From an uncultured Acidobacteriota bacterium (GTDB taxonomy: Bacteria > Acidobacteriota > Thermoanaerobaculia > Multivoradales > UBA5704), in assembly GCA_963832495.1 (NCBI GenBank), contig CAWHUF010000012.1, forward strand, positions 74,140-138,139: 64,000 nt of DNA, written 5' to 3'. The translations under genes were made by a program, and so were the position numbers. Below the pieces are notes generated by a model. The model worked only from the letters and a program-made list of their open reading frames with translations. It had not been told where the DNA came from and did not search any database. Below are positions 35,957 to 60,249 of the stretch, piece after piece; position 1 is the first letter of the stretch, and each line of letters opens with the position of its first letter.

Positions 35957-36000
35957 AACCCTCACCCCCCGGAGTACAATCACCCTCGGGAGGGCGCGCG

Positions 36001-37161: not shown

Positions 37162-37890
37162 TCAGAACCCGCCGGGACGAGGAGGCGCGGCGGGGGCCGC
37201 CGCCGGCCGCCAGTCGTCGTCGAGCCACTCCGCAGTGATCCGGGCCCTCTCGGGGCCCAGGTACTTGGCCACCAGGTAGAGCGAGGCGTCGATCGAGGAG
37301 GACACCCCGGCCGTGCTGACGATCTTGCCCGATTCGAGGTAGTCCCTGGTGGCTGCCACCTTGGCTTTCGGGGCCAGTTGCTTGAGATAGCCCGCGCCCT
37401 GGTGGTGGACGGTCACGGGGACGCCGTCCAGGAGGCCGGCTTTGGCGAGCAGGAAGGTCCCCAGGCAGACGCTGAGCACGGTCTCGGCGCTGCCGGCCCG
37501 CTGCCGGACCCAGTCGATCAGCGCCGGCCGGTTCATGGCCTGCAGGGCTCCGCGCCCTCCCGCGAGCACCAGCACGTCCGCGGGCGGGCAGTCGGCCAGC
37601 ACGCAGTGGGCCTCGATCGCGAAACCGCCGTCCACCTGGATCAGGCCCGGTTTCTCCGCCGCGAGCCGGATCTGGAACGCCGGGGTGTTGGTGGTGCCGA
37701 GCTCGCTGGCCGTCTTGAAGACCTCGACCGGGCCGACCAGGTCGCCCAGCTCGACGCCGTCATAGATCAGCACCAGGACGGTCCGGGTGACCTCCTTCGC
37801 CGCCTCCTTCGCCTGGGGCGCCGCGGGCGGTTGGCCGTTAGCGGGCGCGGCGAGCGCCAGGACCAACGAGAGGAAGAGGAGATTTCGCAT
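37162..37890 (-). CDS. DJ-1/PfpI family protein with signal peptide
   Basis: ATG at codon 97 of track ORF 37162..38178: MRNLLFLSLVLALAAPANG. The nucleophile elbow is SVCLGTFLLAKAGLL. Confidence 0.8.
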   Translation of the reverse strand: MRNLLFLSLVLALAAPANGQPPAAPQAKEAAKEVTRTVLVLIYDGVELGDLVGPVEVFKTASELGTTNTPAFQIRLAAEKPGLIQVDGGFAIEAHCVLADCPPADVLVLAGGRGALQAMNRPALIDWVRQRAGSAETVLSVCLGTFLLAKAGLLDGVPVTVHHQGAGYLKQLAPKAKVAATRDYLESGKIVSTAGVSSSIDASLYLVAKYLGPERARITAEWLDDDWRPAAAPAAPPRPGGF

Positions 37891-43593: not shown

Positions 43594-44469
43594 ATGCCGA
43601 TGCAAAGGGAAGCAGAACGCTCGTGCCGTATCCGCCGCTGGCTCCTGGCCGGAGCCCTCTCGACGCTGGTTCTGAGCCCGCCCGCTCCGGCTGAAATGGG
43701 GGTCCAGGGCCTGGAGGTCTCCGGACTCCAGGTGCGCGTCCTCGATCTCGACCAGGCGGTCGACTTCTTCAAGCTCTACAGCTTCCAGGCAGACGAGCGC
43801 AAGTCCCCCACTCTCGCCACCGTCCGCAACGGCACCGCCGTCATCGACCTCGTCAAGGTCTCCCGCAAGTTGGACATCGACGACAAGAAGGTCTCGAACA
43901 CCCACATCAATCTGCGGGTCGAGAACCTGGACGCCGCGGTGTCCGAGCTCAAGGCGAAGGGCGGGTACCAGATCGTCGGCGAGCCCCGGCGCAAGTCTCC
44001 GGTCGGCGACTACGCCATCATCAAGGATCCCTCCGGCAACAACTTCCATCTGATGGAGCCCAGCCACAAGCCGGCGGAGGGGATCAAGCGGGGGATCTTC
44101 AATGTCGGCATCACCCTGACCGACATGGCCAAGGGCCGGGAGTTCTACCGCGACAAGCTCGGGTTCGAGATTTTTTCCGAGGACTACTTCCCGCCTGACC
44201 TGCCGCTCAAGCGCAAGGGGACCCTGCCGCTGGTCCTCCACCAGACGGCGGACAGCCCCGCCACCCTCGGATATCCGGACATGGCCGAGTCCATCATCGT
44301 GCTGCGCGCCCCCGACCTCGCCAAGGCCATGGCGGCACTGAAAGGCCAGGGGGTCCGGTTCCTCCATGACCGGCCCCAGCAGTCTCCCCTGGGCACGTAC
44401 GTGGCCTTCGTCGATCCCTTCGGCATCGTGTTCGAGCTGAGGGAAGCGGCCGGCCGCGCGTCTCGCTGA
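43594..44469 (+). CDS. Tandem-domain VOC (glyoxalase/bleomycin-resistance fold) protein with an N-terminal signal-like segment
   Basis: CRIRRWLLAGALSTLVLSPPAPA, then two VOC modules: LQVRVLDLDQAVDFFK...HINLRVENLDAAVSELKAKGG...AIIKDPSGNNFHLME and IFNVGITLTDMAKGREFYRDKLGFEI...VAFVDPFGIVFEL. The gene ends 56 nt upstream of the first MMPL gene on the same strand. Confidence 0.8.
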   Translation: MPMQREAERSCRIRRWLLAGALSTLVLSPPAPAEMGVQGLEVSGLQVRVLDLDQAVDFFKLYSFQADERKSPTLATVRNGTAVIDLVKVSRKLDIDDKKVSNTHINLRVENLDAAVSELKAKGGYQIVGEPRRKSPVGDYAIIKDPSGNNFHLMEPSHKPAEGIKRGIFNVGITLTDMAKGREFYRDKLGFEIFSEDYFPPDLPLKRKGTLPLVLHQTADSPATLGYPDMAESIIVLRAPDLAKAMAALKGQGVRFLHDRPQQSPLGTYVAFVDPFGIVFELREAAGRASR

Positions 44470-44525
44470 GGCGGGGATGGCGGAGTGACGAGAGCAACGA
44501 CGCATTAGCTGGATGGAGGAGCCCC

Positions 44526-46928
44526 ATGCCCCATCGATGGTTGACGCGAGTCGCCGAGCGCACCCTGGACCGTCCCTGGTGGTCCATCGCCGCGATGGTC
44601 CTGTTTACGCTTGCGCTCACTCCCGGGCTCACCCGGCTGCAGTTCCGCACCGACGGACACGCTCTGATGCCGCCCGACCATCCCGTGGTGCGGTTCGACG
44701 CGTCGATGCGCGAGGATTTCCAACTGCGGGATCCCATCGTCGTCCTGGTCGAGACCTCGCATCCGGCCGGAATCTACAACCTCACGACGTTGCGGAAGGT
44801 CAGCGAGCTGAGCCGCGCGCTCGGCAAGCTCCCCGGCGTCGGCCCGGAACAGGTCATGAGCCTGGCCACCGAACGCCGCGACCGGTTCTTCCCCGGCACC
44901 CTGACCTTCCGCCCCTTCCTCGACCCCTTGCCGGACACCCCGGTCCTGATGGATCTCCTCAAGTCGGACATCCAGGCGACTCCGGTCCTGACCGGCACCC
45001 TGATCTCGGCCGACGCGCGGGCCACCGCGATCCTGGTGGGCGCGCCCTCGGTCTTCGACTCGCAGGGACGGGTCGCCACCGACCGCGCCAGCCTGTACCA
45101 GGAGATCGTGGGCGTTTCGCGCAGTTTCGAGAGTCCCACCGACCGCATCTTCGTGGCCGGCGCCCCGGTGGCGGAGTCCCTGCTCGGCCGGCACATCCTC
45201 GAAGACCTCCGTCTGCTGGTGCCGCTCTGCCTGATGCTGATCGCCCTTGCCTGCTTCTGGGGCTGCCGGCGGGGCTGGTCCCTTCTGGTGGTGCTCCCCA
45301 AGATCGGCGCCACCCTGCTGTGGACCTTCGGCCTGATGGGGTGGCTCGGCTCGCCCGTCTACCTGACGACGGCCGTCCTGCCCGTGATCCTCATCACCGC
45401 CTTCCTGGCCGACGAGATCCACCTCCTGTTGCACTACCAGCAGATCCTGGCGCGAACCCCCGGTGCCGCGCATCAGCCCGCCTTGCGGCAGGCGATCTCC
45501 GAAATGGCCCGGCCGATCACGCTCACCTCGCTGACCACCGCCGCCGGGTTCTTCTCCTTCCTCGCCTCGTCCATCGTGCCGGTCCGGGCGTTCGGCCTCT
45601 ACGCGGGCGTGGCCATCCTCTTCTGCCTGCTCTGGACCTTCACGGTGGTGCCGGCGACCCTCGTCCTGCTCGGACGGGCCCGGATCGAACGGCGCGGCGG
45701 GCCGGAGCTGGCGGAGGGGAACTGGCTGACACAGGCTCTCTCGCCGTTGCTCCGGCACCGGCTTGCGACCCTGGCCACGCTCGGCATCCTGACCGTGACC
45801 CTGGGGCTCGGGATCCAGCGGCTGGAGGTCCAGGACAGTTGGGTCGACGGCTTCGCGCAGGGCAGCACCTTCCGGCGCGCCACCGATCGCATCAACGCCC
45901 AGCTCTACGGCAGCCATCTGCTGCTCGCCCACGTCCACTTCAATCCGCCTGTGGCGGACGCCCCGGAGGTCCATGGCCGCAGCGGCCCGCTGCTCGATCC
46001 GCGGAACCTCCGGGCGGTAGGCGACCTGGAGACCTTCATCCGCAGGCGGCCGGAGGTCGGAGGCGTCGTGGGTCCTCACAGCCAGTTCACGACGGTCGCG
46101 TACCTCTGGCTGGGGCGGCAGCCGGAGGCGCGCTCGGTGCCGGACGACGTCGGGCGTGTGGAACAGGTGTTCCGGCTGTTCGACCGCACGCGGGGCGAGC
46201 TCCGCCGCCGCCAGGTGGTGAACGACGATCTCGACCAGGGCATCGTCACCATCTTCCTCAAGGAGGCCAACTACAAAGAGACCGCCCGCCTGATGGAGGC
46301 GATCCGGGCCTACGAGCGGCAGCACCTCACGCCGCTCGGAGCGCGCCTCGCCTTTGCCGGCGACGTCGCCGTCAGCCAGGCGATGATCCCCCAGATCGTG
46401 AGCAGCCAGATCTGGTCGCTGCTGTTCGCCCTGCTCAGCTGTTTCCTGGTGGTCTGCCTGCTGCACCGAAGCTTCGCGGACGGCTTCTGGGCTGTCCTGC
46501 CAGCGTACGTCGCGGTCGTCTGGGTCTTCGGGGCCATGGGGTGGCTCGGGATCCACCTGGGCGTGGCAACGTCGATGTTCTGCGCCATCACCCTCGGCAT
46601 CGGCGCGGACTACGGGATCCATTTCCTCGAGCGTTTCCGCCATGCCCAGTCCGAGGGGAACCCCCAGCCCCAGCGCGCGGCGCTGGCAGAAGCCGGGCCG
46701 GCCATCCTGATCGATTGCGTGGCGATCGCCCTCGGCTTCGCTCTGCTGGGCTTCTCCGAAGTTCCGGCCAATGTCCGCCTGGGTGTCCTGGTCGCGGTGG
46801 CGCTCTTCGCCAGTTGCCTGCTGACACTGACGGGCCTGGCGGTCCTCCTGCCGACGGGAGTCCGGCGGTCTGTTCAACCCGCTCAGGACGCTCCGGTCCC
46901 CCGGAGCGAGGCGGCGGGGTCGATGTGA
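44526..46928 (+). CDS. MMPL/RND-superfamily exporter (12-TM, HpnN/MmpL-like), paralogue 1
   Basis: 800 aa, with GGAGGAG upstream. It has two 6-TM bundles separated by periplasmic domains. Conserved TM motifs include ITLTSLTTAAGFFSFLASSIVPVRAFGLYAGVAILF and ITLGIGADYGIHFLERF. Confidence 0.8.
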   Translation: MPHRWLTRVAERTLDRPWWSIAAMVLFTLALTPGLTRLQFRTDGHALMPPDHPVVRFDASMREDFQLRDPIVVLVETSHPAGIYNLTTLRKVSELSRALGKLPGVGPEQVMSLATERRDRFFPGTLTFRPFLDPLPDTPVLMDLLKSDIQATPVLTGTLISADARATAILVGAPSVFDSQGRVATDRASLYQEIVGVSRSFESPTDRIFVAGAPVAESLLGRHILEDLRLLVPLCLMLIALACFWGCRRGWSLLVVLPKIGATLLWTFGLMGWLGSPVYLTTAVLPVILITAFLADEIHLLLHYQQILARTPGAAHQPALRQAISEMARPITLTSLTTAAGFFSFLASSIVPVRAFGLYAGVAILFCLLWTFTVVPATLVLLGRARIERRGGPELAEGNWLTQALSPLLRHRLATLATLGILTVTLGLGIQRLEVQDSWVDGFAQGSTFRRATDRINAQLYGSHLLLAHVHFNPPVADAPEVHGRSGPLLDPRNLRAVGDLETFIRRRPEVGGVVGPHSQFTTVAYLWLGRQPEARSVPDDVGRVEQVFRLFDRTRGELRRRQVVNDDLDQGIVTIFLKEANYKETARLMEAIRAYERQHLTPLGARLAFAGDVAVSQAMIPQIVSSQIWSLLFALLSCFLVVCLLHRSFADGFWAVLPAYVAVVWVFGAMGWLGIHLGVATSMFCAITLGIGADYGIHFLERFRHAQSEGNPQPQRAALAEAGPAILIDCVAIALGFALLGFSEVPANVRLGVLVAVALFASCLLTLTGLAVLLPTGVRRSVQPAQDAPVPRSEAAGSM

Positions 46929-47026
46929 AAGTGAAAGGAGGTGGTCTGGTGCCCTAGACAGAGTGCGGACTGGTTCTTGACAAAGACAGAACTAACGCTG
47001 AATCTTGAATCTAAGGAGACACCGTC

Positions 47027-47701
47027 ATGACGTTACGCAAGTCCCTGGTGTTATCCGTCGCCTTGCTCCTGATGGTCGCCGTGGTCCCAATGGCGAGCGC
47101 CGGCAAGGCTCCCCTGTCCTTCCCCAAGGCGGGTGTGTACACGATCAATTCCCACCCCAGCTTCCTCATCTCGGTCGGCGACAGCAAGGAAGTCGTCGAG
47201 TGCGACGCCACCCTCATCGTGCAGGCCGGTGATGCCTACATCACCCGTCAGGGCACCCGCCGGGTGGACCTCCAGATCCTCGACTGGAAGGCGAAGGGCC
47301 ACTCCAAGCTGATCGGCGGCCCCCTGAATTTCCGCATGACCAAGGGCGTCAAGGTCGACGACAAGAGCTTCGTCGAGACCTACGGTCTGGCCAAGGCCTC
47401 GACGGGCGCCGCCGACTTCCCGGCCCAGGCCCAGTTCGCCGTCCCGTATGAGATCGACACTCCGTTTGGAGTTGTCGGCGGCCTGGTCGGCGTCACCCGG
47501 GGCAGCATCAAGGCCTTCCCGCCGAGCGGCGACATCTTCACCATGGAGAAGGGCGACATCGCCAAGCTGATGAATGCTCTGATGCCGGCCCCGCTGTCCT
47601 CCATGTCCGCTTCCGGCAAGGTCGATATCACCGAAGTCACCATTCAGCCTCTCGCCTGCGCCTGCCCGGTGGCGGAAGCTGACGGCGGCGGCAACCAGTA
47701 G
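47027..47701 (+). CDS. Secreted protein of unknown function (224 aa), inside the PKS operon
   Basis: AAGGAG lies 8 nt upstream. The signal peptide is MTLRKSLVLSVALLLMVAVVPMASA. I recognise no motif. The C-terminus is ...IQPLACACPVAEADGGGNQ. Confidence 0.75.
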   Translation: MTLRKSLVLSVALLLMVAVVPMASAGKAPLSFPKAGVYTINSHPSFLISVGDSKEVVECDATLIVQAGDAYITRQGTRRVDLQILDWKAKGHSKLIGGPLNFRMTKGVKVDDKSFVETYGLAKASTGAADFPAQAQFAVPYEIDTPFGVVGGLVGVTRGSIKAFPPSGDIFTMEKGDIAKLMNALMPAPLSSMSASGKVDITEVTIQPLACACPVAEADGGGNQ

Positions 47702-47814
47702 TCCCCGTGACTGATTGGACCGATCGCGCCCTCACCAGGCTCGATCGGCCCTTGTTTCGGAGGGCTCGTTTCCAAGGTTTCGGAGCACCAGAAGAAAAGA
47801 GGAGTATTTCCGTG

Positions 47815-48846
47815 ATGACTTTTCCTGCCTCCCGCTCCGCTTCTCTCGAGCTGTCTCAGGCCAAGCCGGGTCCGCGGAGGTTGGGAGCGGCTCTGCGGCG
47901 GGCGCTCTTCGGTATCCGGCCGGGGGAGACCTCCTTCGAGCGGCGCGGGTTCCAGACGGATTCCGACGCGTTGCGCGAGCGCCTGGAAGAGGTGGGTCGC
48001 TGCTTCGTGGCCGGCTATCACGCGGCTCTCGCGGAGGACCGTCCGGAGCCGCTCGCGGCCCTCGTCGAGTCCGCGGTGGAGCGGGACTTCCACGGCTTCG
48101 CCTACGAGGGGGCGGGCATGGCCCTCGCCCTGCGCGACGCGCTCTCCCCCATCCGGCGGGACCGCCTGGCGCGGTTCCTCGCGGGTCCGGGGGACGCGCA
48201 CGCCTACATCATCTACGTGGGCGCGGGCTGGATCCTGGCCCGGCTCCCCCTCTCTCCCGAGCGCTTCCTCTCCCGGCTGCCCGACCCGGTGCTGCGCTGG
48301 CTGGCCCTCGACGGCTACGGTTTCCACGAGGGCTTCTTCAACTGGCCCCGGTCCGTCGGCCGCCAGGAGGTGCCGGGAAAGATCCGCGGATACGCCCGCC
48401 AGGGGTTCGATCAGGGACTCGGCCGCAGCCTGTGGTTCGTCCAGGGCGCGGACGTCCGGCGGATCCCAGCCACGATCCAGGCCTTCCCGGCGGCACGCCA
48501 GCCGGACCTCTGGAGCGGCCTGGGGCTCGCCTGCGGCTACGCGGGCGGCCGGACCCGCGCCGAGGTGGAGGATCTGGCGCGCGCCGCCGGTCCCTATGGG
48601 CCCCAGCTCGCGCAGGGGGTCGCCTTCGCGGCCAAGGCCCGCGAGCGGGCGGGCAACATGGCCGCCCATACCCTCCTCGCCTGCGAGGTGATCTGCGGCA
48701 CGGACGCCGCCACGGCCGCCGCGGTGACCGACGAGGCCCGTCACGATCTGCCGGCGGACCGGCCGGACAAGCCCGCCTTCGAGGTCTGGCGCCAGCGCAT
48801 CCAGCAACACTTTTTCGAGGTGAATGAGGTAACCATCCATGAATGA
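47815..48846 (+). CDS. unbL: DUF1702 / UnbL-type enediyne biosynthesis protein (E3 equivalent)
   Basis: Track ORF 47707..48846 has a GTG start. I prefer the ATG at codon 37 (47815), which has AGAGGAG upstream and gives 343 aa. Motifs: FERRGF, FHGFAYEGAGMALALRD, YIIYVGAGWILARL, LALDGYGFHEGFF, GFDQGLGRSLWFV, DLWSGLGLACGYAGG. Confidence 0.8.
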   Translation: MTFPASRSASLELSQAKPGPRRLGAALRRALFGIRPGETSFERRGFQTDSDALRERLEEVGRCFVAGYHAALAEDRPEPLAALVESAVERDFHGFAYEGAGMALALRDALSPIRRDRLARFLAGPGDAHAYIIYVGAGWILARLPLSPERFLSRLPDPVLRWLALDGYGFHEGFFNWPRSVGRQEVPGKIRGYARQGFDQGLGRSLWFVQGADVRRIPATIQAFPAARQPDLWSGLGLACGYAGGRTRAEVEDLARAAGPYGPQLAQGVAFAAKARERAGNMAAHTLLACEVICGTDAATAAAVTDEARHDLPADRPDKPAFEVWRQRIQQHFFEVNEVTIHE

Positions 48847-50770
48847 ACGCCCCGGATTCTTTCGCCGCTACGGGGTGCGGCTGGCGGCCCTGGCGCTGAT
48901 CGGCGGGCTCTACGGCTTCGCCCGCCTGCCCACGCTGCCCGAGGGGGAGCGGCAGGCGCTGGCCTCGCGCTTCGCCTTCTCCCGGCTTCCCCTGACGGCC
49001 CCGCCTGGAGATCTCGCCCGATCGATCCGCGAGGTCCATCCCAGCTACAAGGACATCGCGGCCTGGATCTCGAGCGTGGGGGCCGGCGTGGCTCTGAACG
49101 ACCTGGACGGCGACGGGCTGGCGAACGACCTCTGCTCGGTCGATCCGCGGGTGGACCAGGTGCTGGTCGAGCCCGTGCCGGGCACCGGGCCGCGCTACCC
49201 GGTGTTCGCCCTCGATCCCGCTCCCATTCCCTACAACGCCCGCACCACGGCGCCCATGGGCTGCCTGCCGGGCGACTGGAACGAGGACGGGCGGATGGAC
49301 CTGCTGGTCTACTACTGGGGCCGGCCGCCCATCGCGTTCCTGCGCCGCGCGGCGACCCCGCAGACATCCGCTCCGGCCGCGGCGGCCTACCGGGCGGTCG
49401 AGGTCGCTCCGGGCAGCCAGATCTGGAACACCAATGCCCTGACCAGCGCGGATGTGGACGGCGACGGCCACCTGGACCTGGTGGTGGGCAACTACTTCCC
49501 CGACGGCATGCGGGTGCTCGACGCCCGGGCGGTGGACAAGGCCCACATGCACCGCTCCATGTCGCGCTCGGAGAACGGCGGCAAGAACCGGCTGCTGCTC
49601 TGGCAGGCCCCCTCGGATGCCTCAGCCGGACCGGAGCCCACGGTGCGCTTCGTGGACGTGCCGAACGCCTTCGACGGCGCGACCACCTACTCGTGGACCC
49701 TGGCCGCGGGCGCCGTGGACCTCGACGGCGATCTGCTGCCCGAGATCTATTTCGGCAACGACTTCGGCCACGACCGGCTGCTCAAGAACCTCTCGACGCC
49801 GGGCCGGCCCCGCTTCGCCGTGCTGGAAGGGAAGAAGAGCTTCACCACGCCGGCCTCCAAGGTGCTGGGCCACGACTCCTTCAAGGGCATGGGCGTCGAC
49901 TTCGCGGACGTCAACGCCGACGGCATCCTGGACATCTACGTGAGCAACATCGCTCAGAATTACGCCTTGGAGGAGAGCCACTTCCTGTGGGTGAGCACGG
50001 GCGACCTCTCCCCCATCAACGACGGCGTGGCCCCCTGGGTGGACAAGGGCGAGGACCTGGGCCTGTCGCGCAGCGGCTGGGGCTGGGACTCCCGCCTCGC
50101 CGACTTCGACTCCGACGGCGTGCCCGAGGCGCTCCAGGCCATCGGCTTCCTGCGCGGCGAGAAGAACCGCTGGCCCGAGCTCCACGAGCTGGCCATGGGC
50201 AACGACAACAACATGAACCACACGGGGGCCTGGCCCAACTTCAAGCTGGGCGACGACCTCTCCGGGCACCTGCACAACCCCTTCTTCGTGCAGGCGAAGG
50301 ACGGCCGGTACTACGACCTCGCCCCCGAGATCGGGCTGGACGACAACTACATCACCCGGGCGATCGCCATCGCCGACACGGACGGCGACGGCGACCTCGA
50401 CTTCGCCATCGCCAACCAGTGGGAGCCCTCCTGGTTCCTGCGTAACGACTCCCCCCGGCGCAACGCCTCTTTAACGATCGACCTGCGGTTGCCCGCGGGA
50501 TCGACATCGCAGGCAACGCGGCCGGCCGTGGGGGCGTCGGCGGTGGTTACCCTGCCGGACGGCCGCAAGCTGGTGGGCCAGGCGGACGGCGGCAGCGGCC
50601 ACTCGGGCAAGCGGTCGCCCGAGATCCATTTCGGATTGGGACGCCTGACCGGAAACACTCCCGTGCGGGTGGACATCCACTGGCGCGACAGCTCAGGCAA
50701 GGTGAAGACGGAAACGATGACATTGACCCCCGGCCGGCACCGGGTGGTGCTCGGGGAAAGGCAGGGTTGA
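48839..50770 (+). CDS. unbV: FG-GAP/VCBS-repeat protein with a C-terminal ASPIC/UnbV domain (E4 equivalent)
   Basis: ATGAATGA overlap with unbL. It has an N-terminal TM helix and repeats NDLDGDGLANDL, GDWNEDGRMDLLVYY, ADVDGDGHLDLVVGNYF, VDLDGDLLPEIYFGNDF, ADVNADGILDIYVSN, ADFDSDGVPEAL and ADTDGDGDLDFAIANQW. The C-terminal part is DGGSGHSGKRSPEIHFGLG. Confidence 0.85.
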   Translation: MNERPGFFRRYGVRLAALALIGGLYGFARLPTLPEGERQALASRFAFSRLPLTAPPGDLARSIREVHPSYKDIAAWISSVGAGVALNDLDGDGLANDLCSVDPRVDQVLVEPVPGTGPRYPVFALDPAPIPYNARTTAPMGCLPGDWNEDGRMDLLVYYWGRPPIAFLRRAATPQTSAPAAAAYRAVEVAPGSQIWNTNALTSADVDGDGHLDLVVGNYFPDGMRVLDARAVDKAHMHRSMSRSENGGKNRLLLWQAPSDASAGPEPTVRFVDVPNAFDGATTYSWTLAAGAVDLDGDLLPEIYFGNDFGHDRLLKNLSTPGRPRFAVLEGKKSFTTPASKVLGHDSFKGMGVDFADVNADGILDIYVSNIAQNYALEESHFLWVSTGDLSPINDGVAPWVDKGEDLGLSRSGWGWDSRLADFDSDGVPEALQAIGFLRGEKNRWPELHELAMGNDNNMNHTGAWPNFKLGDDLSGHLHNPFFVQAKDGRYYDLAPEIGLDDNYITRAIAIADTDGDGDLDFAIANQWEPSWFLRNDSPRRNASLTIDLRLPAGSTSQATRPAVGASAVVTLPDGRKLVGQADGGSGHSGKRSPEIHFGLGRLTGNTPVRVDIHWRDSSGKVKTETMTLTPGRHRVVLGERQG

Positions 50771-50772
50771 GA

Positions 50773-51714
50773 ATGGCTGAGACGACCATGGTCAAGCCGG
50801 CGGGCAAGGACATGCGCCTGGCGGCGCTGCGGCGGTTCGCCACCGCCATCACCATCCTGAACGTCCTGGGCCACACGGTGCTCGGTTTCGAGCAGTCGCT
50901 GGCCCAGCCCGTCGTGTCCCTGCTGGCGGCCTACTCGACGGAGATCCTGCTCGAGTGGCTGCACGCCCGCCGGCTCGGCTGCAAGCCGCGCTTCCTGGGC
51001 CGGGGCGTCATCGGGTGGATCGACTTCCTGCTCTCGGCCCACATCAGCGGCCTGGCGGTCGCCATGCTGCTCTACGCCAACGACCGGCTGCTGCCGATCG
51101 CCTTCGCGGCCGTGGTGGCCATCGCCTCCAAGCACCTCTTCCGGGCGGGCACCAACGGCTCGAGCCGGCACTTCTTCAACCCCTCGAACCTGGGGATCAC
51201 GGCCACGCTTCTGGCCTTCCCCTGGGTGGGCATCGCCCAGCCCTACATGTTCACCGAGAACCTCTCCGGCGGCTGGGACTGGCTGCTGCCCGTCGTCATC
51301 GTCTGCTCGGGCACGTTCCTCAACGGCATGTTCACCAAGCGCCTGCCGCTCATCGGCTCCTGGCTCGGCTGCTTCGTCCTCCAGGCGGTCATCCGCCACT
51401 TCGTGTTCGGCAACGCCTTCCTCCCTTCGCTCAACCCCATGACGGGCGTAGCCTTCCTCCTCTTCACCTACTACATGGTGACGGACCCGGCGACGACGCC
51501 CACCACGGTGCGCGGCCAGGTCGCCTTCGGAGCGGCAATGGCGGCGGCGTACGGCACGCTGATGGCGTTCCACGTCGTGTTCGGCCTGTTCTTCGGCCTG
51601 AGCGCCGTGTGCGCCGGCCGGGGAGCGATCCTGTACCTGAAGGCCCTGGCGGCCCAGAAGGCCGAGGCGAAAGCCAAATCGGCGATGGACGTCCCGGTGG
51701 CGGTGGAGGCCTGA
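50773..51714 (+). CDS. unbU: UnbU-type integral membrane protein (E5 equivalent)
   Basis: ATG 3 nt after the unbV stop (the track ORF starts at a TTG at 50767). It has about 8 TM segments and the motifs RHFFNPSNLGITATLLAFPW and YYMVTDPATTP. Position and size fit UnbU. Confidence 0.7.
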   Translation: MAETTMVKPAGKDMRLAALRRFATAITILNVLGHTVLGFEQSLAQPVVSLLAAYSTEILLEWLHARRLGCKPRFLGRGVIGWIDFLLSAHISGLAVAMLLYANDRLLPIAFAAVVAIASKHLFRAGTNGSSRHFFNPSNLGITATLLAFPWVGIAQPYMFTENLSGGWDWLLPVVIVCSGTFLNGMFTKRLPLIGSWLGCFVLQAVIRHFVFGNAFLPSLNPMTGVAFLLFTYYMVTDPATTPTTVRGQVAFGAAMAAAYGTLMAFHVVFGLFFGLSAVCAGRGAILYLKALAAQKAEAKAKSAMDVPVAVEA

Positions 51715-51715
51715 G

Positions 51716-54700: not shown

Positions 54701-57523
54701 GTGGGCCAGCTCGTGGTGGAGGCCTCGCGCCGGCTGGGCCTGCGCCCGCCCGCCTCCCCCACCGACTACGCCCGGGCCACGGTGGCCGAGGTGGCCCAGG
54801 CCCTGGAGGAGCAGGCGCCCGCCGGCACGGCCAGCGAAGCGTCCGGGCCGCCGGCCGGAGTCGATACCTGGGTGCGGCCGTTCACGGTGGACCTCGTGGC
54901 GCGGGACCTGCCTCACCGGGCCTCGCAGGGGAACCCCGCGGTCACTGAGAGGGGATGGCAGGTGATCGCGCCTCCAGATCTTCCTCTCGCCGAAGCGCTC
55001 CCGAAGCGGCTCGAAGGAAGAGGAGTCGCCCTCTGCCTGCCCGCGGAGCCCGACGAGCGGCACGCCGTCCTTTTCGTCGAGGCCGCCCGCGCCGCCCTGG
55101 CCGCGAAAGGGCCTCTCCGTTTCGCGCTGGTCCAGCAGGGGGGCACCAGCGGTGGCTTCGCCCGGACCTTGCACCTGGAGGTTCCAGGCGCCACGACGAC
55201 GGTGATCGATCTGCCCCTGGATCATCCGGATGCAGCTTCCCGGGTTGCCGCTGAGGTCGCCGTGGCTTCCGGCTATACCGAGGCGCATTACGACGAGCAG
55301 GGGAACCGGCGCGTGCCCGTGCTGCGCCTCCTCGATCCCGGACCGTCAGGCCCCCTCCCGATCGGCGCGGACGACGTCCTCCTGGTGACCGGCGGCGGCA
55401 AGGGCATCGCGTCCGAGTGCGCCCTGGACCTCGCCCGCGTGTCCGGCGCCCGGCTGGCCCTCCTGGGGCGGTCCCTGCCGGAGCAGGACGCCGAGCTCAC
55501 CGCCAACCTGGAGCGCATGGCCGCGGCCGGGATCACCCCGCTCTACGTCTCCGCGGACGTGACCGACGCCGCCGCCGTGGCCGCCGCCGTGGCCCGGGTG
55601 GAAGCCGAGCTGGGGCCGGTGACCGCCGTCCTGCACGGCGCCGGCGCCAACGCGCCCCGCCTGCTCGCCGCGATCGACGAAGCGGGCTTCCTGCGTACCG
55701 TGGCCCCCAAGGTGGCGGGCCTGCACAACGTGCTGGCCGCCCTGTCACCGCCGGGGCCCGGCCGGCTCCGGCTGCTCGTGACCTTCGGCTCGATCATCGC
55801 CCGCACCGGCCTGCGGGGCGAGGCCGACTACGCCGTGGCCAACGAGTGGCTGGCCCGCGCCACCGAGCGCTTCGCCCGCGAGCACCCGGGCTGCCGGTGC
55901 CTGGCCCTGGAGTGGTCCGTGTGGGCCGGCGTCGGCATGGGCGAGAAGCTGGGCACCCTGGAGAGCCTGATGGCCCAGGGGATCACCCCGATCCCGCCCG
56001 AGACTGGCGTCGAGCTGCTGCGGGACCTGATCTCGCGGGATCTGGAGGCCGTCTCGATCGTCGCCACCAGCCGCTTCGGCGATTCGAAGACCCTGGAGGT
56101 CGAGCGGGCCGAGCTGCCGCTCCTGCGCTACCTGGAGACGCCGCGCATCCATGTTCCCGGCGTTGAGCTGGTGGTGGACGCCGAGGTCTCGGCCGACACC
56201 GATCCCCACCTGGCGGACCACGTCTTCCGCGGCGAGCCCCTGTTCGCGGCCGTGCTCGGCATGGAGGCCATGGCCCAGGCCGCCATGGCGCTGGTGGGCA
56301 CGGACGAGATCCCCGTCTTCGAGGACGCCGTGTTCGCCCGCCCCGTGGCCGTGCCCCCCGGGCGCTCGACCACGATCCGGGTCGCGGCCCTCGTGCGCTC
56401 CCCCGGCAAAGTCGAGGTCGTCCTGCGCGACGCGTCGACGGGCTTCGCCGCCGACCACTTCCGCGCCGTCTGCCGCTTCGGCGGGCCCTTCGGCGGACCC
56501 TTGGACGCGGAGCCTCGCGTGCTCGTGCCCTTCCAGGCGGACCGGCGGGTCGATCTCGATCCCGAGGACGATCTCTACAGCGGCATCCTCTTCCACCGCG
56601 GCCGCTTCCGCCGGGTCCAGGGCTACCGCAGCCTGAGGGCCACGGAGTGCCTGGCCGAGATCGCTCCGGACGGCACCACGGCCTGGTTCGGCCGCTACCT
56701 GCCGGACCGCCTCGTGCTGGGCGATCCCGGGGCACGCGACGCGGCCATCCACGGCATCCAGGCCTGCATCCCCCACGCGACCCTGCTGCCTACGGGAGTC
56801 GAGAGGGTGACCACCTTCGGCCTCTCCAAGGACGTGCCCCTCCTCCTCGCCGCCCGCGAGAGGAGCCGCAACGGCGACGACTTCATCTACGATCTGGAGC
56901 TGCTCACCCTCGACGGCCGCCTGCGCGAGCGCTGGGAAGGCCTGAAGCTGCGGGCCGTGGACCGCACCGTCCTGCCCGAGTCCTGGACGGCGGCCCTGCT
57001 CGGCCCCTACATCGAGCGCCGCCTCCAGGAGATCCTCCCCGGCTCCCATGTCCAGGTTGCCCTCGAAGAAGAGCACGGGAACGGGCGGCGGCACCGCCCG
57101 GACGGGAAGCCTGAGACGGCGGACAGGGCGGACGGCCTCCATCTCTCCGTCTCCCACGCCGGCAGGCTCACCTTCACCGTGGCGGGAAACGGCCGCCTGG
57201 GCTGCGACCTGGAGCCCGTGGCCGAGCGGCCCGCTGAGGTCTGGGAAGGCCTCCTGGGCGGCGAGCGCTTCCGTCTGGCCGAGCTCATCGCCCGCGAGCG
57301 GGGCGAGTCGCGCGACGCCGCGGCCACCCGCGTCTGGGCCGCGGCCGAGAGCCTCACCAAGGCCGGCGTCCCCCACGGCGCTCCGCTCGTCCTGGAAAGC
57401 CGAGGGGAAGACGGTTGGCTCCTCCTGCGCTCCGGTGAGCTGACGATCGGCACCTACCTCGCCCCCGTGCGCGAGCTCCAGGGCCAGGCCGCCTTGGCCA
57501 TCCTGCTAGAGAGCGTGCATTGA
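51716..57523 (+). CDS. pksE: Iterative type I polyketide synthase of the enediyne (PksE) type: KS-AT-ACP-KR-DH-PPTase
   Basis: 1935 aa, with the ATG 1 nt after the unbU stop. KS is aa 3-467 (about 51722-53116), with Cys214 in TLDGACAASL (52355-52357), EGHGTGT and NIGHTKAAAG. AT is aa 585-880 (about 53468-54355), with GFLFPGQGS and GHSLGE (Ser662, 53699-53701). ACP is aa about 957-1032, with DLHLNSISVGQL (Ser993, 54692-54694). KR is aa about 1218-1445, with VTGGGKGIA and YAVAN. DH is aa about 1478-1750, with HLADHVFRGEPLFAAVLGME. The C-terminal PPTase-like domain is aa about 1755-1935, with GCDLE and WAAAESLTKA. Confidence 0.92.
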   Translation: MSVGIAIVGMACRYPDARTPGELWENVLARRRAFRKVPTERLNLADYLPGVTDPSDPDSLYTIEAALLEGWDFDRVRFRVAGRTFRATDHAHWLALEVAANALADAGFPDAEGLPRDSTGVLLGNTLTGEFSRSNTLRLRWPYVRRVLAGTLSEQGWEQGRIDEILGQMEVSYKEPFPVPMEESLAGGLSNTIAGRICNHFDLHGGGYTLDGACAASLLAVANACSALAAGDLDVALAGGVDLSLDPFELVGFARVGALAHDGEMRVFDARSAGFLPGEGCGFVVLMREEEAARLGCRTYAVIRGWGISSDGHGGISRPESEGQKMALARAYRRAGFGIDTVGYFEGHGTGTSVGDAAELAALSSARREAGAMTAGGTKAALGSIKANIGHTKAAAGVAGLIKATLAVHAQVLPPTTGCEEPHPELQAPDAPLRVLQQGEPWPSGQPLRAAVSAMGFGGINTHVVLEGEAPLRRRSLAVRERELLASWQDAELLLLDGADPSALAASAEQLAEKAERLSRAELADLAAGLAFRTGSGPARAAVVASKPAEAAERLRRLADGLRSGETARLDSRHGVFFGVGARGRRIGFLFPGQGSPSHLDGGAWRRRFEDLEAVYEPAGLDPKADAVNTAVAQPAILTHSLAGLWLLDRLGLRAAVAVGHSLGEIAALHWGGALQAASALRLATVRGRAMADAGGEHGAMASLGVDPATVEELLGQDGAVIAAYNSPRRTVISGLAAAVDAVVERARDRGLEASRLRVSHAFHSPLMEPAAPSLAAELERIAWRPLARPVASTVTGALLEPGDDPRALLRDQLTAPVRFTEAFGAVSGRADLWIEVGPGRALSELAGELVDTPVIPLDAGGPSLTGLLKAAGAAFALGAPLDVAFLFQGRFTRPLDLDRPLQFLVNPCELAPAMSAASATSSTRGPKPSPKKVVPAPMDFDDEPAPALAAVPVQGSSNVRDLVRQLVAERAELPPAAVTDDSRLLSDLHLNSISVGQLVVEASRRLGLRPPASPTDYARATVAEVAQALEEQAPAGTASEASGPPAGVDTWVRPFTVDLVARDLPHRASQGNPAVTERGWQVIAPPDLPLAEALPKRLEGRGVALCLPAEPDERHAVLFVEAARAALAAKGPLRFALVQQGGTSGGFARTLHLEVPGATTTVIDLPLDHPDAASRVAAEVAVASGYTEAHYDEQGNRRVPVLRLLDPGPSGPLPIGADDVLLVTGGGKGIASECALDLARVSGARLALLGRSLPEQDAELTANLERMAAAGITPLYVSADVTDAAAVAAAVARVEAELGPVTAVLHGAGANAPRLLAAIDEAGFLRTVAPKVAGLHNVLAALSPPGPGRLRLLVTFGSIIARTGLRGEADYAVANEWLARATERFAREHPGCRCLALEWSVWAGVGMGEKLGTLESLMAQGITPIPPETGVELLRDLISRDLEAVSIVATSRFGDSKTLEVERAELPLLRYLETPRIHVPGVELVVDAEVSADTDPHLADHVFRGEPLFAAVLGMEAMAQAAMALVGTDEIPVFEDAVFARPVAVPPGRSTTIRVAALVRSPGKVEVVLRDASTGFAADHFRAVCRFGGPFGGPLDAEPRVLVPFQADRRVDLDPEDDLYSGILFHRGRFRRVQGYRSLRATECLAEIAPDGTTAWFGRYLPDRLVLGDPGARDAAIHGIQACIPHATLLPTGVERVTTFGLSKDVPLLLAARERSRNGDDFIYDLELLTLDGRLRERWEGLKLRAVDRTVLPESWTAALLGPYIERRLQEILPGSHVQVALEEEHGNGRRHRPDGKPETADRADGLHLSVSHAGRLTFTVAGNGRLGCDLEPVAERPAEVWEGLLGGERFRLAELIARERGESRDAAATRVWAAAESLTKAGVPHGAPLVLESRGEDGWLLLRSGELTIGTYLAPVRELQGQAALAILLESVH

Positions 57524-57945
57524 AGGCCTACGAATACCGCCACCAGGTGGGGTTCGAAGAGACCAACCTCGTCGGCAACGTCTACTACGTCAACCATCTG
57601 CGCTGGCAGGGGCGCTGCCGCGAGATGTTCCTGCGCGACCATGCTCCCGAGATCCTGGAAGACCTCCGCAACGGCCTCGCCCTGGCCACGGTTCGCTGCT
57701 CGTGCGACTACCTCGCCGAGCTCGAAGCCTTCGACACCATCGTCCTGCGCATGCGCCTGGGGGGCGCCGTGCAGAACCGCATCACCCTGCTCTTCGAGTA
57801 CTGGCGCCAGAACGGCGACTCTGGCACCGAGGAGCTGATCGCCCGCGGCGAGCAGGTCATCGCCTGCATGCGCCGCGAGGGCAAGGGGGCCGTCCCCACT
57901 CCCATCCCGGCACCTCTGCGCGAGGCATTGAAGCCGTACGCGTAG
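57520..57945 (+). CDS. Hotdog-fold (4HBT-type) thioesterase, enediyne E10/CalE7-like
   Basis: The TTG start overlaps the PKS stop (CATTGAAGG). MKAYEYRHQVGFEETNLVGNVYYVNHLRWQGRCREMFLRDHAP...ATVRCSCDYLAEL. Length is 141 aa. Confidence 0.85.
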   Translation: MKAYEYRHQVGFEETNLVGNVYYVNHLRWQGRCREMFLRDHAPEILEDLRNGLALATVRCSCDYLAELEAFDTIVLRMRLGGAVQNRITLLFEYWRQNGDSGTEELIARGEQVIACMRREGKGAVPTPIPAPLREALKPYA

Positions 57946-57960
57946 GGGATCCCGCCCGGC

Positions 57961-60249
57961 ATGCTGACTCTCGCCCGTGCCGCACTGGGACGTCCGCGGC
58001 TCGTCCTCCTCCTGTTCCTCCTGGGCACAGCGGCCGTCGCTCCCGGCCTGCTCCGCCTGGAGATCCGCACCGACGGCGCCGCCATCTACCCCGAGGGGGA
58101 CCTTACCGTCGAGCGGACCCTCGCCGACCGCGAGACCTTCGCCGAGCCCAGCCAGGTCATCGTCGTCGTGAGCTCAAGGCCCGGCGGCCCCCGGCTCGAA
58201 TCGCCGGCGGGGTTCCGCTTCCTGCGCCGGATCGACCAGGAGCTGCGCCGCCAGCCTGGCGTGGACCGCTCCGGCGTCCATTCGCTCGCCGACCTCGTCG
58301 AGCCGCCGCCGCCGGGGAAGATCGCGATCCTCACCTACCTCGACGAGATCCCCGACGACCCCGCCGACTTCGCCGCCCTCCTGGCGCGCATCCGCCGCCT
58401 GTCCGTGGCGAGCGGGCTCTTCCTCTCCCGGGATGGCACCACCGCGCCCATCTACGTGCCCGCCTCCCGCAACGCCGACCGCCGCGAGCTGATCCGCCAG
58501 ATCGAGAGCTGGCTCGCCGCCCGCTCCACCGCCCCTTTCGAGCTGCGGATCACGGGTCCCACGGCGGCGGAGGCGGTCCTGGGCGAGACCGTGCTCGACG
58601 ACTTGCTCAGGCTCGTGCCCCTCATGGTGGCCGCCGTCGCGCTCCTCCTGGCCTTTTCCCTGCGCACCCCGGGCGGCGTGTTGATTCCCCTCGTCCAGGT
58701 GCTCGCCACCCTCGTCTGGACCCTGGGCCTCATGGGCTGGGCGGGCGTGCCCGTCACCCTGGTGACCACCATCCTCCCCGTGCTCCTCATGGCGATGTCC
58801 ATCACGGACGAGATCCACCTGCTCGAACGGGTCCAGCACCGGCTGAGCGAGACTCTCCGGGACCTTCCCGACCGGGAGAGACTGATCAGGGCCACGGCAG
58901 CCTCCTATGCCGACCTGGTCTCTCCTCTCACCCTCACCTCGCTCACCACCGCCGCGGGCTTCTTCTCCTTCCTGGGCTCCTCCATGGCGCCGCTGCGGCA
59001 CCTGGGACTCTTCGCCGGCCTGGGGCTGCTCCTGGCCATGGCTTTCACCTTCAGCCTGGTCCCCTCCCTGATCGCTCTCCTGCCGCCGGGCTGGATCGTT
59101 CGCCGGCCGCGCCGGGAGGCGGGGGAGACCGGCACCGCCCTCGCGCTCCCCGCCTGGGAACGCCTGCTCGCCCGGCGCTCGCGGGCCTTTGCCCTGGGTG
59201 GGGCCGCCCTTCTCCTCCTCGCCGTGCCCGGGATCTTCCGGTTGACCGTGCAGGATTCCTGGATCGACAACTTCGATCCCCGTTCTTCCCTGGTCACCGC
59301 GGAGCGGGCCTTCAACGCCGCCTTCTGGGGCAGCTACCGCCTGGACGTGGTGCTCGAAGGCGAGCGGGACCTCTTCCTCACCCCCAAAGGCGCCGCTCTG
59401 CTGGAGGACGTGGACCGCCTGGCCCGTTCGGCCCCGCACGTGGGCGGCGTCCTGAGCGTCCTCCAGTTCCTGGACGTGGGCGCCCAGGCCCTCGACCTGC
59501 CGTTGCCGGTCTCCAGGCTCCAGCCACTCGACGCCCGCCGGGCCAGCGCCATGGTCGACCTCCTGGCGCTCCGGGTGAGCCTGAGGCAGTACCAGACGGC
59601 GGACAAGAGCCAGGCGCGGGTCCGCCTGTTCGTGCCCGACGCCGACTACGCCAAGGGGGCCGAGCTGCGCGCCTGGCTCGAACGGCGCCTGCCGGAAATC
59701 GCCCGGCGCCACGGCGTGCGCGCCCACGTCTCCGGCGACGTGGCCGTGGGTCTGGCCGTGGTCGGGTCCGTGGTGGGCAACCAGCTCCGTTCGATCGGCT
59801 GGACCGCGGTGATGATCGTCCTCACCCTGCTCATCGCCTTCCGCAGCCTGCGCTGGACGGCGGTCGCCACCCCTCCCGTGCTCGCCGCCACCCTGCTGCT
59901 GTTCGCGGCCCTGGGCTACGCGGGGATCCCGCTCGGCATCGCCACCAGCATGTTCGCGGCCCTGAACCTGGGCGCCGGGGTCGATTTCGCCCTCCACTAC
60001 GTCCATGCCTACCGGCGCGAGAAGGGGAGGGGCCTGGGGCATGACGAAGCCGTGCTCGCCACTCTGCGCACCGCCGGCCGGGGCCTGCTCTGGAACGCCC
60101 TGGTCCTGGCCTTCGGCTTTTCCGTGCTGGCCTTCTCCGCCATCAAGCCCAACGCCAGCCTCGGGTTCCTCCTCGCCACGGCCATGCTCGCCAGCTACGC
60201 CACGACCGTGGTGTTCCTGCCGGAGATCCTGCGGCGGGCGGGCCGATAA
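57961..60249 (+). CDS. MMPL/RND-superfamily exporter, paralogue 2
   Basis: 762 aa, starting 15 nt after the TE gene. It is collinear with 44526..46928: LTLTSLTTAAGFFSFLGSSMAPLRHLGLFAGLGLLL, NLGAGVDFALHYVHAY. Confidence 0.8.
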   Translation: MLTLARAALGRPRLVLLLFLLGTAAVAPGLLRLEIRTDGAAIYPEGDLTVERTLADRETFAEPSQVIVVVSSRPGGPRLESPAGFRFLRRIDQELRRQPGVDRSGVHSLADLVEPPPPGKIAILTYLDEIPDDPADFAALLARIRRLSVASGLFLSRDGTTAPIYVPASRNADRRELIRQIESWLAARSTAPFELRITGPTAAEAVLGETVLDDLLRLVPLMVAAVALLLAFSLRTPGGVLIPLVQVLATLVWTLGLMGWAGVPVTLVTTILPVLLMAMSITDEIHLLERVQHRLSETLRDLPDRERLIRATAASYADLVSPLTLTSLTTAAGFFSFLGSSMAPLRHLGLFAGLGLLLAMAFTFSLVPSLIALLPPGWIVRRPRREAGETGTALALPAWERLLARRSRAFALGGAALLLLAVPGIFRLTVQDSWIDNFDPRSSLVTAERAFNAAFWGSYRLDVVLEGERDLFLTPKGAALLEDVDRLARSAPHVGGVLSVLQFLDVGAQALDLPLPVSRLQPLDARRASAMVDLLALRVSLRQYQTADKSQARVRLFVPDADYAKGAELRAWLERRLPEIARRHGVRAHVSGDVAVGLAVVGSVVGNQLRSIGWTAVMIVLTLLIAFRSLRWTAVATPPVLAATLLLFAALGYAGIPLGIATSMFAALNLGAGVDFALHYVHAYRREKGRGLGHDEAVLATLRTAGRGLLWNALVLAFGFSVLAFSAIKPNASLGFLLATAMLASYATTVVFLPEILRRAGR

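Follow-up and report, generated by a model that had tools for sequence, protein, structure and literature searches.

The 64,000-nucleotide stretch of acidobacterial DNA analysed here (hereafter the window) carries, on its plus strand at 47815–57945, five genes that encode full-length, collinear orthologues of the E3, E4, E5, E and E10 proteins with which actinomycetes begin the assembly of enediyne antitumour antibiotics. By sequence comparison this locus is a genuine and complete enediyne-type polyketide synthase (PKS) cassette, and the first-pass annotation, which had called it so from the nucleotide sequence, was right and robust on this point. The recurrence of the five-gene layout, its fixed chromosomal site and the tree of the synthase, all described below, indicate that the stand-alone state of the cassette is ancestral and stable in the lineage, and is not a rearrangement or misassembly. 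The most likely function, held with a confidence only slightly better than even and argued by analogy, would be to make and export a linear C15 polyene or polyyne, or a simple derivative; the first pass had listed such a compound among its candidates, and it is kept here as the preferred explanation, at that same strength.

The host is described as a soil acidobacterium, and its closest relatives in homologue searches are Thermoanaerobaculia metagenome-assembled genomes (MAGs), in agreement with the Acidobacteria-like character noted earlier. The window has a GC content of about 68%, and the real frames were chosen among many shadow open reading frames (ORFs) by third-position GC. The C-1027 cluster on Streptomyces globisporus plasmid SGLP1 served as the reference for direct protein comparison, and all 29 annotated proteins of the C-1027 region were used as tblastn queries against the whole window. 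Only E2/E3, E4, E5, E and E10 find a counterpart, together with weak matches of MMPL and oxidoreductase type.

The first cassette gene, unbL (47815–48846), encodes a 343-residue E3 protein that matches DUF1702 with an E-value of 2e-112. It is followed by unbV (48839–50770), for an E4 protein with an FG-GAP beta-propeller and a C-terminal UnbV_ASPIC domain (Pfam FG-GAP, FG-GAP_3 and UnbV_ASPIC) and one N-terminal hydrophobic anchor (residues 11–33); by unbU (50773–51714), for E5, a polytopic membrane protein with some 8–10 hydrophobic segments that is distantly RnfD/NqrB-like; by pksE (51716–57523), for an iterative type I PKS of 1935 residues with the domain order KS-AT-ACP-KR-DH-PPTase; and by the gene for E10 (57520–57945), a hot-dog thioesterase (TE) of 141 residues with a Pfam 4HBT_2 match. 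The C-1027 minimal cassette consists of the same five proteins in the same order, with the same six-domain PKS and its catalytic motifs. Over their full lengths the pairs share 44% (UnbL and SgcE3), 44% (UnbV and SgcE4), 49% (UnbU and SgcE5), 50% (PksE and SgcE, residues 5–1930 of 1935) and 54% identity (TE and SgcE10), and UnbL is 35% identical to SgcE2. The sole Pfam match of UnbU, a weak one to NQR2_RnfD_RnfE, is also the sole match of SgcE5. All three proteins encoded upstream of the synthase thus fall into the expected families. Three UnbL motifs, the C-terminal UnbV motif and the TE motif that had been read from the translations are exact, and the seven DxDGDG repeats ascribed to UnbV become three exact and six relaxed copies.

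ORF and Pfam analysis confirms nine plus-strand genes at 43594–60249, and most of their junctions. The unbL/unbV overlap (ATGAATGA) is exact at 48839–48846, and the TTG start of the TE gene does overlap the stop codon of the PKS gene. The 1-nt gap between unbU and pksE also stands, while unbU itself may begin either at ATG 50773, leaving a 2-nt gap, or at TTG 50767, giving a 4-nt overlap. An earlier unbL start at 47707 is replaced: the likeliest start is the ATG at 47815, because it lies behind a ribosome-binding site (AAGAGGAG) and matches the 343-residue recorded protein P0001. Counted from this ATG, the gap between unbL and the upstream gene, that for a secreted protein named SEC224, is 113 nt, not about 5 nt as previously given.

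Pfam recovers the KS, AT, ACP (PP-binding), KR and DH (PS-DH) domains of the 1935-residue synthase, as annotated in the first pass. At the C-terminus, the PPTase gives a weak ACPS match that lies below the cut-off (E 0.0027); the region is 47% identical to that of SgcE and keeps the CDLE and ESLTK motifs. The catalytic residues are kept throughout (KS Cys and His, AT GHSLG, ACP Ser, DH His). Among solved structures, the best relative of the AT domain per residue is DynE8; this AT domain and two thioesterases, CalE7 and DynE7, were the only references of 10-membered type. A synthase of the polyunsaturated fatty acid (PUFA) or heterocyst-glycolipid type was considered and rejected, in keeping with the earlier assignment to PksE: the PfaA model covers the KS only and reaches 531 bits against a cut-off of 1010, the best full-length relative is SgcE, and the protein has a single ACP and no enoyl reductase, PUFA-type synthases being multi-subunit systems with tandem ACPs, FabA-type dehydratases and an enoyl reductase. 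UnbL yields a confident, all-alpha model (predicted local distance difference test, pLDDT, 85.9) that has no significant match in the PDB and offers no functional clue. Its homologues number more than 5800 in a metagenome-scale protein collection, the nearest (65–85% identity) being from Thermoanaerobaculia MAGs, and several close ones are named ‘enediyne biosynthesis protein E3’ in IMG.

The thioesterase matches SgcE10 (E 2e-45), CalE7 (7e-45) and DynE7 (1e-39) in the PDB, which bears out the CalE7/SgcE10-like hot-dog enzyme proposed before. At the position of CalE7 Tyr29, the window enzyme has a histidine (His26), while the equivalents of Asn19 and Arg37 are kept. A comparison that took in the window, loci L006–L081, L084 and L091–L096 (L numbers denote loci throughout) finds Tyr at this position in nine of nine actinomycete enzymes (CalE7, DynE7, SgcE10 and those of six Streptomyces/Nonomuraea loci). 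The 34 TEs of non-actinobacterial cassettes have His in 29 cases, the window included, Pro in four and Tyr in one, and the Asn19 and Arg37 equivalents are invariant across the TEs compared. In CalE7, according to what a 2009 study by Kotaka and colleagues is said to report, Arg37 is responsible for hydrolysing the thioester, and Tyr29 helps to decarboxylate the beta-keto acid that is set free. If these roles are right, the release chemistry may differ in the His-bearing clade.

A scan of species-representative genomes gave 80 loci, which were mapped with the window proteins and by de novo ORF clustering. About 70 loci from at least eight phyla show the order UnbL-UnbV-UnbU-PksE-TE, their hosts belonging to Acidobacteriota, Verrucomicrobiota, Planctomycetota, Gamma-, Alpha- and Deltaproteobacteria, Bacteroidota, Kapaibacteriota and Chloroflexota. 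The order is kept in Thermoanaerobaculia, Holophagales, Blastocatellia/Pyrinomonadaceae, Rhodocyclaceae, Herpetosiphonaceae, an alphaproteobacterium and a deltaproteobacterium. In Methylotuvimicrobium buryatense 5G (L050, 5499–20102) the complete five-gene cassette has only an MMPL gene and a gene for a PEP-CTERM secreted protein as neighbours. A neighbour-joining tree of PksE follows taxonomy, pairs the window protein with that of L006 and shows SgcE as one deep branch among many; its base is star-like and it is unrooted, so that the clade is not assignable to the 9- or the 10-membered type. Orthologues at 65–85% identity are intact in dozens of related genomes, which indicates purifying selection.

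Within Thermoanaerobaculia the cassette occupies a fixed site. Upstream lie a gene for a GT2 glycosyltransferase (minus strand; 34279–35178 in the window), one for a PlsC-like acyltransferase of 233 residues (plus strand; 35255–35956), recognised in an alignment by PlsC-type NHxSxxE and PEGR motifs, and one for an M50-CBS protease (plus strand). This trio, at 34279–37158 in the window, is found across Thermoanaerobaculia and in one member of the Holophagales (among loci L001–L035). Downstream follows either an MMPL gene or, directly, brkB or a gene of the type found at 60315 in the window. In some 25 loci of Thermoanaerobaculia and Holophagales the cassette is bounded on one side by the M50-CBS protease gene and on the other by an MMPL gene, brkB or the gene of 60315 type. 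These flanks are shared by the window, whose synteny with its kin continues to the left (MFS transporter, aldehyde dehydrogenase). Since the 233-residue protein encoded beside DUF1702 in L001 and L002 matches window positions 35255–35956, the window contains, relative to its kin, an insertion of about 10.6 kb between the M50 gene and unbL, which is the accessory module described below. This 233-residue protein had been entertained as a SEC224 homologue, a candidate rejected on its match to the acyltransferase.

The first pass had treated the phylum as a surprise, and this was overstated: cassettes outside the actinomycetes are already in the literature, and IMG labels E3 homologues as such. 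A count in 2014 placed 7 of 61 cassettes outside Actinomycetales (PMC4480864), and in 2023, 160 of 210 metagenomic enediyne-class KS domains were assigned outside the actinobacterial lineage, to several phyla and with unknown products (PMC10308959); Acidobacteria are not named in the survey's passages on these domains. The present locus is of the same kind as the orphan clusters of both reports, an enediyne-class KS and cassette in a phylum without a known enediyne. The parts of the reports that deal with such clusters do not describe the stand-alone five-gene layout, a link with MMPL transporters, the accessory module or a DynF-like protein. What is added here is the breadth and the fixed chromosomal position of the stand-alone five-gene unit, together with a recurrent module of exported proteins and transporters that extends upstream to 37162, the pairing of a DynF-like barrel with MMPL, and the Tyr/His split of the TE.

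Several observations on related loci stand apart from this. Some loci lack cassette members in the fetched span, having UnbL followed by PksE (L045, L058, L086), SEC224-PksE-UnbU (L088) or SEC224-UnbV-UnbU-PksE without a DUF1702 gene (L089). A different type of cluster occurs in L064, L070, L072 and L077–L080, in Ktedonobacteraceae, Herpetosiphon giganteus, Chloroflexia, Mycobacteriales, Kitasatospora and Kribbella; a PKS of about 1850 residues, some 30% identical to PksE, is followed there by three to five DUF1702 paralogues and other shared proteins (ORF clusters c70, c86 and c104), while UnbV, UnbU and TE are all missing. DUF1702 is thus not confined to enediyne cassettes. One family of AraC-type regulators lies beside the cassette in Pyrinomonadaceae and some Thermoanaerobaculia, as well as in the C-1027 cluster (L041, L042, L047, L051 and L056, after the TE; L006, L010, L017, L018 and L054; L084, 15381–16235), and is absent from the window; an MMPL transporter and this regulator family occur in or near actinomycete and non-actinomycete cassettes alike. 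A small His-rich membrane protein with HWAEH and WHHFEH motifs and no Pfam family is common to C-1027 and a few non-actinobacterial cassettes (L084, 1205–1768, minus strand; L054, 9493–10002; L065, 2880–3548; L069, 10943–11389). It was tried as a relative of DynF and proved to be unrelated, and it too is absent from the window. On the 5.9-Mb MAG contig of L001/L005 (13.9–19.8 kb), the enediyne PKS (PKSE) is called in fragments though tblastn covers the whole protein; these are probably frameshift errors of long-read sequencing, a caution for calling pseudogenes in such assemblies.

The genes that accompany the cassette in actinomycetes typically include SgcJ, TIGR03084, DUF5987, a GMC oxidoreductase and two DUF1702 genes. 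With the C-1027 proteins as tblastn queries, no homologue of SgcE6, E7, E9, E11 or DUF5987 and no P450 is found in the 64-kb window, nor is there a second DUF1702 gene, a GMC oxidoreductase, a TIGR03084 E11 protein or a secreted apoprotein, the company of a 9-membered core. Compared with the C-1027 cluster, the window has no counterpart of flavin reductase E6, P450 E7, the GMC oxidoreductase, TIGR03084 E11, DUF5987, SgcJ or the peripheral-moiety pathways. It further differs in its single DUF1702 gene as against two, in a TE gene that directly follows the PKS gene, in the His rather than Tyr of the TE, and in its setting at a fixed chromosomal site in a Gram-negative-type phylum, whereas the C-1027 reference lies on a plasmid. 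Classical tailoring genes are likewise missing from the cassette flanks that were annotated in other loci, so the minimal state is not an assembly artefact, a possibility the first pass had raised as a test of its own interpretation.

Pfam scans of the flanking genes of the window reveal housekeeping or envelope functions and no biosynthetic genes. Besides the GT2 glycosyltransferase, the PlsC-like acyltransferase and the M50-CBS protease, they encode a 2-oxoglutarate oxygenase, a dynamin-like GTPase, an MFS transporter, a subtilase, giant S-layer-homology (SLH) proteins, an aldehyde dehydrogenase, a sensor kinase, an M20 peptidase, permeases, BrkB and an NAD-dependent DNA ligase. One of the surface proteins (11423–16711, minus strand) has 1762 residues with six InlB-type B-repeats and an SLH domain; its gene lies in a region where GC falls to 57%, especially at 14–16 kb, against about 68% elsewhere, and the subtilase gene adjoining it (5789–9301) also specifies an SLH domain. 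At 60315–61358 (minus strand) lies a gene for a secreted protein of 347 residues with a Thr-rich tail and no family match; genes of this type follow directly after the TE gene in L007 and L009, and after the second MMPL gene in the window. Scans of the window with Rfam and for tRNA genes find none, and a promoter and terminator scan of 43–61.5 kb gives nothing above shuffled background.

The statement that no accessory genes lie nearby holds for the C-1027 core tailoring genes, and is overstated in view of the secreted protein SEC224, whose model matches DynF. The companion statement, that additional oxidoreductases are lacking, is contradicted by three minus-strand genes at 37.2–40.9 kb, whose products are a flavin amine oxidase, an alpha/beta-hydrolase and a member of the DJ-1 family. 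Nor do the nine plus-strand genes form one compact operon as supposed, because those for the VOC protein, the first MMPL exporter and SEC224 belong to a separate recurrent module that is also seen without a PKSE nearby. This accessory module begins at 37162, upstream of the start given in the first pass. It comprises the MacB-like ADOP permease, flavin amine oxidase, Hip1-like hydrolase, DJ-1, VOC, MMPL and SEC224 genes, and is laid out in the window as two divergent units, the first four on the minus strand and the last three on the plus strand, running into the cassette.

The minus-strand half closes with the DJ-1/PfpI family gene (37162–37890; Pfam DJ-1_PfpI, E 2e-17), whose start and Sec signal peptide (MRNLLFLSLVLALAAPANG) are taken from the translation. 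Next to it are the gene for a secreted alpha/beta-hydrolase of the Hip1/tripeptidyl-aminopeptidase type, located at approximately 38010–39386 by tblastn with the hydrolase of L086; that for the flavin amine oxidase (39383–40915; Pfam Amino_oxidase, E 6e-74), which is L-amino-acid-oxidase-like and bears the Tat signal NRREFLVG; and that for the permease (40944–43354), a MacB-like duplicated protein (MacB_PCD and FtsX, twice) of the acidobacterial ADOP type, assigned by Pfam on three ORFs. The oxidase was considered as a CrtI-type desaturase and rejected, its best PDB relatives being L-amino-acid oxidases over the full length (E 5e-57). The L086 hydrolase matches Hip1/CaeA in the PDB (E 1e-18) and, far more weakly, TnmK2 (E 5e-6). 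On the plus strand, the VOC gene (43594–44469; Pfam Glyoxalase in two stretches, E 2e-17) specifies a two-domain protein of the glyoxalase/bleomycin-resistance fold with an N-terminal signal-like segment. Its PDB matches are weak and generic (E 3e-4 or worse), and a role as a TnmS-type sequestering resistance protein is not supported, as 5UMP, 5UMQ and 5UMW stand at about 4e-3, the same as methylmalonyl-CoA epimerase and generic glyoxalases. The module products look extracytoplasmic, with export signals on the flavoprotein (Tat), and on DJ-1, VOC and SEC224 (Sec-type); the Tat motif is also found in the oxidase homologues of L086 and L088.

Two of the module genes look broken in the window. 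The hydrolase gene has at least one frameshift near 38600, its tblastn pieces with the intact L086 query (39252–38638 and 38558–38022) lying in different frames, and the ADOP permease gene has two, at about 42.2 and 43.0 kb, since tblastn with the intact L088 permease aligns residues 1–809 in frames -1, -2 and -3. These are either real pseudogenes or assembly errors of local extent. Real decay seems more likely than sequencing error, because all the other large genes of the window are intact; with the 5.8-kb pksE among them, undamaged coding sequence exceeds 50 kb.

Both MMPL genes are real, as first proposed. The first (44526–46928, 800 residues) is distinct from an overlapping ORF at 44513–46957, which has no Pfam match; the second (57961–60249, 762 residues; Pfam MMPL, E 3e-37) encodes an HAE3-like protein whose NCBIfam HAE3 and HpnN matches are below the cut-offs, so that no subfamily is assigned. 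The two MMPL/RND proteins are 33% identical, with about 11 hydrophobic segments each, Pfam MMPL in two stretches, and Sterol-sensing and Patched matches. Homologues of the first (47–54% identity) occur in the module of L033, L085, L086, L089 and L090. Six SEC224 homologues (L085–L090) were picked regardless of gene context, and three of them (L086, L088 and L089, in other Acidobacteriota) are directly beside a PKSE; L033 also has the module beside the cassette. DJ-1 homologues are found in L086–L089 and VOC homologues in L087–L089. An MMPL gene lies in the fetched span of 20 of 72 cassette loci, from six phyla (12 of 32 of Thermoanaerobaculia type and 8 of 40 others), a lower bound in that many of the locus contigs end early, and it follows the TE gene in about one third of the Thermoanaerobaculia loci. 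The C-1027 cluster contains an MMPL gene as well. Literature searches that combined enediynes with MMPL or DUF1702 turned up nothing bearing on the present clusters.

SEC224 (47027–47701, plus strand) is a secreted protein of 224 residues with no Pfam or NCBIfam match, from a small family (69 matches, and 69 representative clusters among 1.84 billion proteins). An AlphaFold2 model built with 42 homologues (mean pLDDT 80.5, core >90) shows a beta-barrel of 8–9 strands behind the signal peptide. Its only significant PDB match in a Foldseek search is DynF (6UBL; E 1.4e-5, probability 1.0, template-modelling (TM) scores 0.51/0.54). All others have E-values of 0.08 or more, the next being the lipid-binding half-barrels LolA, LolB, LmcA and ependymin. 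An exhaustive profile search of the 1.84 billion proteins retrieved no DynF, and a Bacteroidota protein was the sole named one among ten weak matches. SEC224 adjoins the PKSE in the window and in L033, L086, L088 and L089; in L006, L017 and L030, a more divergent gene of SEC224 type comes after an MMPL gene that lies on the minus strand next to the cassette. DynF has a fold without precedent, binds palmitate and has been put forward as a binder of the PKSE polyene. Its orthologue Sgd15 is required at an early post-PKSE step, and in its absence sungeidine is not made and no intermediates accumulate (PMC8725005). In the dynemicin and sungeidine systems, too, the gene for an eight-stranded beta-barrel of about 200 residues lies next to the enediyne PKS. 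Unlike DynF, which was made as a soluble protein in Escherichia coli and whose cellular location is not discussed (PMC8725005), SEC224 bears a Sec signal peptide, ends in a conserved Cys-rich tail and is usually paired with an MMPL protein, features by which it would act outside the cytoplasm. SEC224 is proposed to be a periplasmic binder or carrier of a hydrophobic product.

E3, E4 and E5 orthologues accompany every known enediyne PKS. For the actinomycete cassette alone, a 2024 study by Gui and colleagues reportedly obtained an iodoheptaene, a diiodotetrayne intermediate and two pentaynes, compounds of the linear kind favoured here. Formation of 1,3,5,7,9,11,13-pentadecaheptaene by PKSE and TE counts among the marks of the minimal cassette. 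In the linear-product pathway preferred here, PksE, like SgcE, would modify itself with phosphopantetheine and extend malonyl units into a conjugated polyene carried on the ACP, and the E10-type TE would release it. The end product would be linear, because genes for ring formation, oxidation, sugars, aromatic moieties or an apoprotein are absent here and beside the cassettes of relatives. One or both MMPL/RND transporters would push this hydrophobic compound out of the membrane, and the secreted DynF-like barrel would take it up in the periplasm as a carrier or stabiliser. The exported enzymes and the MacB-like permease would make up an optional module whose task may be processing in the periplasm, detoxification or further export. 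Vertical inheritance of the cassette, at a site that is fixed in the chromosome, points to a standing physiological or defensive role rather than that of a recently acquired antibiotic island. Aryl-polyene clusters offer a parallel, combining polyene synthesis with an RND/MMPL-type exporter and a small periplasmic barrel carrier with a hydrophobic cavity. After DynF, LolA-like folds come next among the matches of the SEC224 model, though below significance, and the parallel implies no homology; the aryl-polyene synthase is of the type II fatty acid synthase kind with an aryl starter, whereas the PKSE is an iterative type I enzyme with no aryl starter.

A number of points weigh against a linear, exported product. 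We know of no product of any non-actinobacterial cassette, so the product chemistry is argued wholly by analogy, and both the roles of E3, E4 and E5 and the products of the cassette alone are taken at second hand from the reported 2024 work. As no enzyme closing the 9- or 10-membered ring has, to our knowledge, been identified, an absence of cyclisation genes is not provable from sequence. The likeness of SEC224 to DynF is at the level of the fold only (TM ∼0.5, 16% identity); neither a profile of 42 SEC224 sequences nor one broadened to 56 finds DynF among PDB sequences, and since such profiles do not connect the two families, the link rests on fold and genomic context. Most cassette loci are without the accessory module, most also without an MMPL gene, and the module occurs with no PKSE in the fetched span of L085, L087 and L090. 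Finally, two of its genes are frameshifted in the window.

The strongest rival, itself unlikely, is that the locus makes a true cyclic enediyne or cycloaromatised product, with ring closure and decoration by unlinked or unrecognised genes, possibly those of the accessory module. Every characterised cassette of this kind feeds an enediyne, the five products being stated, in parts of the literature, to build the enediyne core, and the window proteins are as close to SgcE3/E4/E5/E/E10 (44–54%) as to those of other non-actinobacterial cassettes. The elusive ring-closing enzymes leave room for this explanation. A DynF-like protein, and a hydrolase with a distant relationship to TnmK2, are reminiscent of the anthraquinone-fused clusters of 10-membered type, although the fold likeness lacks sequence support and the hydrolase family reaches TnmK2 only at E 5e-6. 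VOC-fold proteins such as TnmS are known as enediyne resistance proteins, but the VOC protein here matches them no better than it does generic glyoxalases. Against this explanation, the 64 kb hold none of SgcE6, E7, E9, E11, DUF5987 and P450, dozens of relatives across many phyla have retained just the five genes, and two of the module genes are broken in the window. The accessory proteins are, besides, exported, whereas actinomycetes assemble the core in the cytoplasm.

It is also unlikely that the polyene is an envelope lipid or pigment protecting against light or oxidants in the manner of aryl polyenes, attached by the PlsC-like acyltransferase and GT2 enzyme and delivered by MMPL. The GT2, acyltransferase and M50-CBS genes lie directly upstream of unbL in most Thermoanaerobaculia and in one member of the Holophagales, the acyltransferase has the expected motifs, MMPL/HAE3 transporters typically move envelope lipids, and vertical inheritance at a fixed locus would suit a structural role. 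Against this, the GT2/acyltransferase pair is absent from the cassette loci of all other phyla, and several kb of unrelated genes part it from the cassette in the window, L006, L013 and L017, so that the adjacency looks like lineage synteny, not an operon; moreover, in known systems the E10 TE frees the chain as a free compound. It is very improbable that the cassette is a silent or decaying relic that no longer makes anything, for although two adjacent module genes carry frameshifts and we know of no product for any such cluster, the five cassette genes, both MMPL genes and SEC224 are intact, catalytic residues are kept, and the intact orthologues in dozens of related genomes speak for purifying selection.

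Because their products serve as antibody-drug-conjugate payloads, enediyne PKS cassettes rank with the most studied of biosynthetic genes; the roles of E3, E4, E5 and DynF are only partly understood. Here, the five genes persist alone throughout a whole class of acidobacteria, in which their chromosomal site is fixed, and the cassette is present in at least eight phyla. With M. buryatense 5G, a cultured and genetically tractable methanotroph, the natural product of a bare cassette is directly testable, and the MMPL exporter, the DynF-like barrel, the exported enzymes and the Tyr-to-His change of the TE supply concrete hypotheses for export, handling and release chemistry. Were the product to be only the expected linear polyene or polyyne, the finding would be an incremental extension of known biosynthesis. 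A bolder and distinctly more tentative proposal is that the cassette represents an ancient, self-sufficient pathway in Acidobacteria, and probably in many Gram-negative phyla, for an exported linear polyyne or polyene that MMPL would extract from the membrane and a DynF-type barrel would hold, in the periplasm or outside the cell, much as an apoprotein holds its chromophore, with release altered by a lineage-wide Tyr-to-His change, and that the enediynes of actinomycetes are a later elaboration of it. If true, this would give the first defined role for DynF-family proteins and the first product of a PKSE from outside the Actinobacteria.

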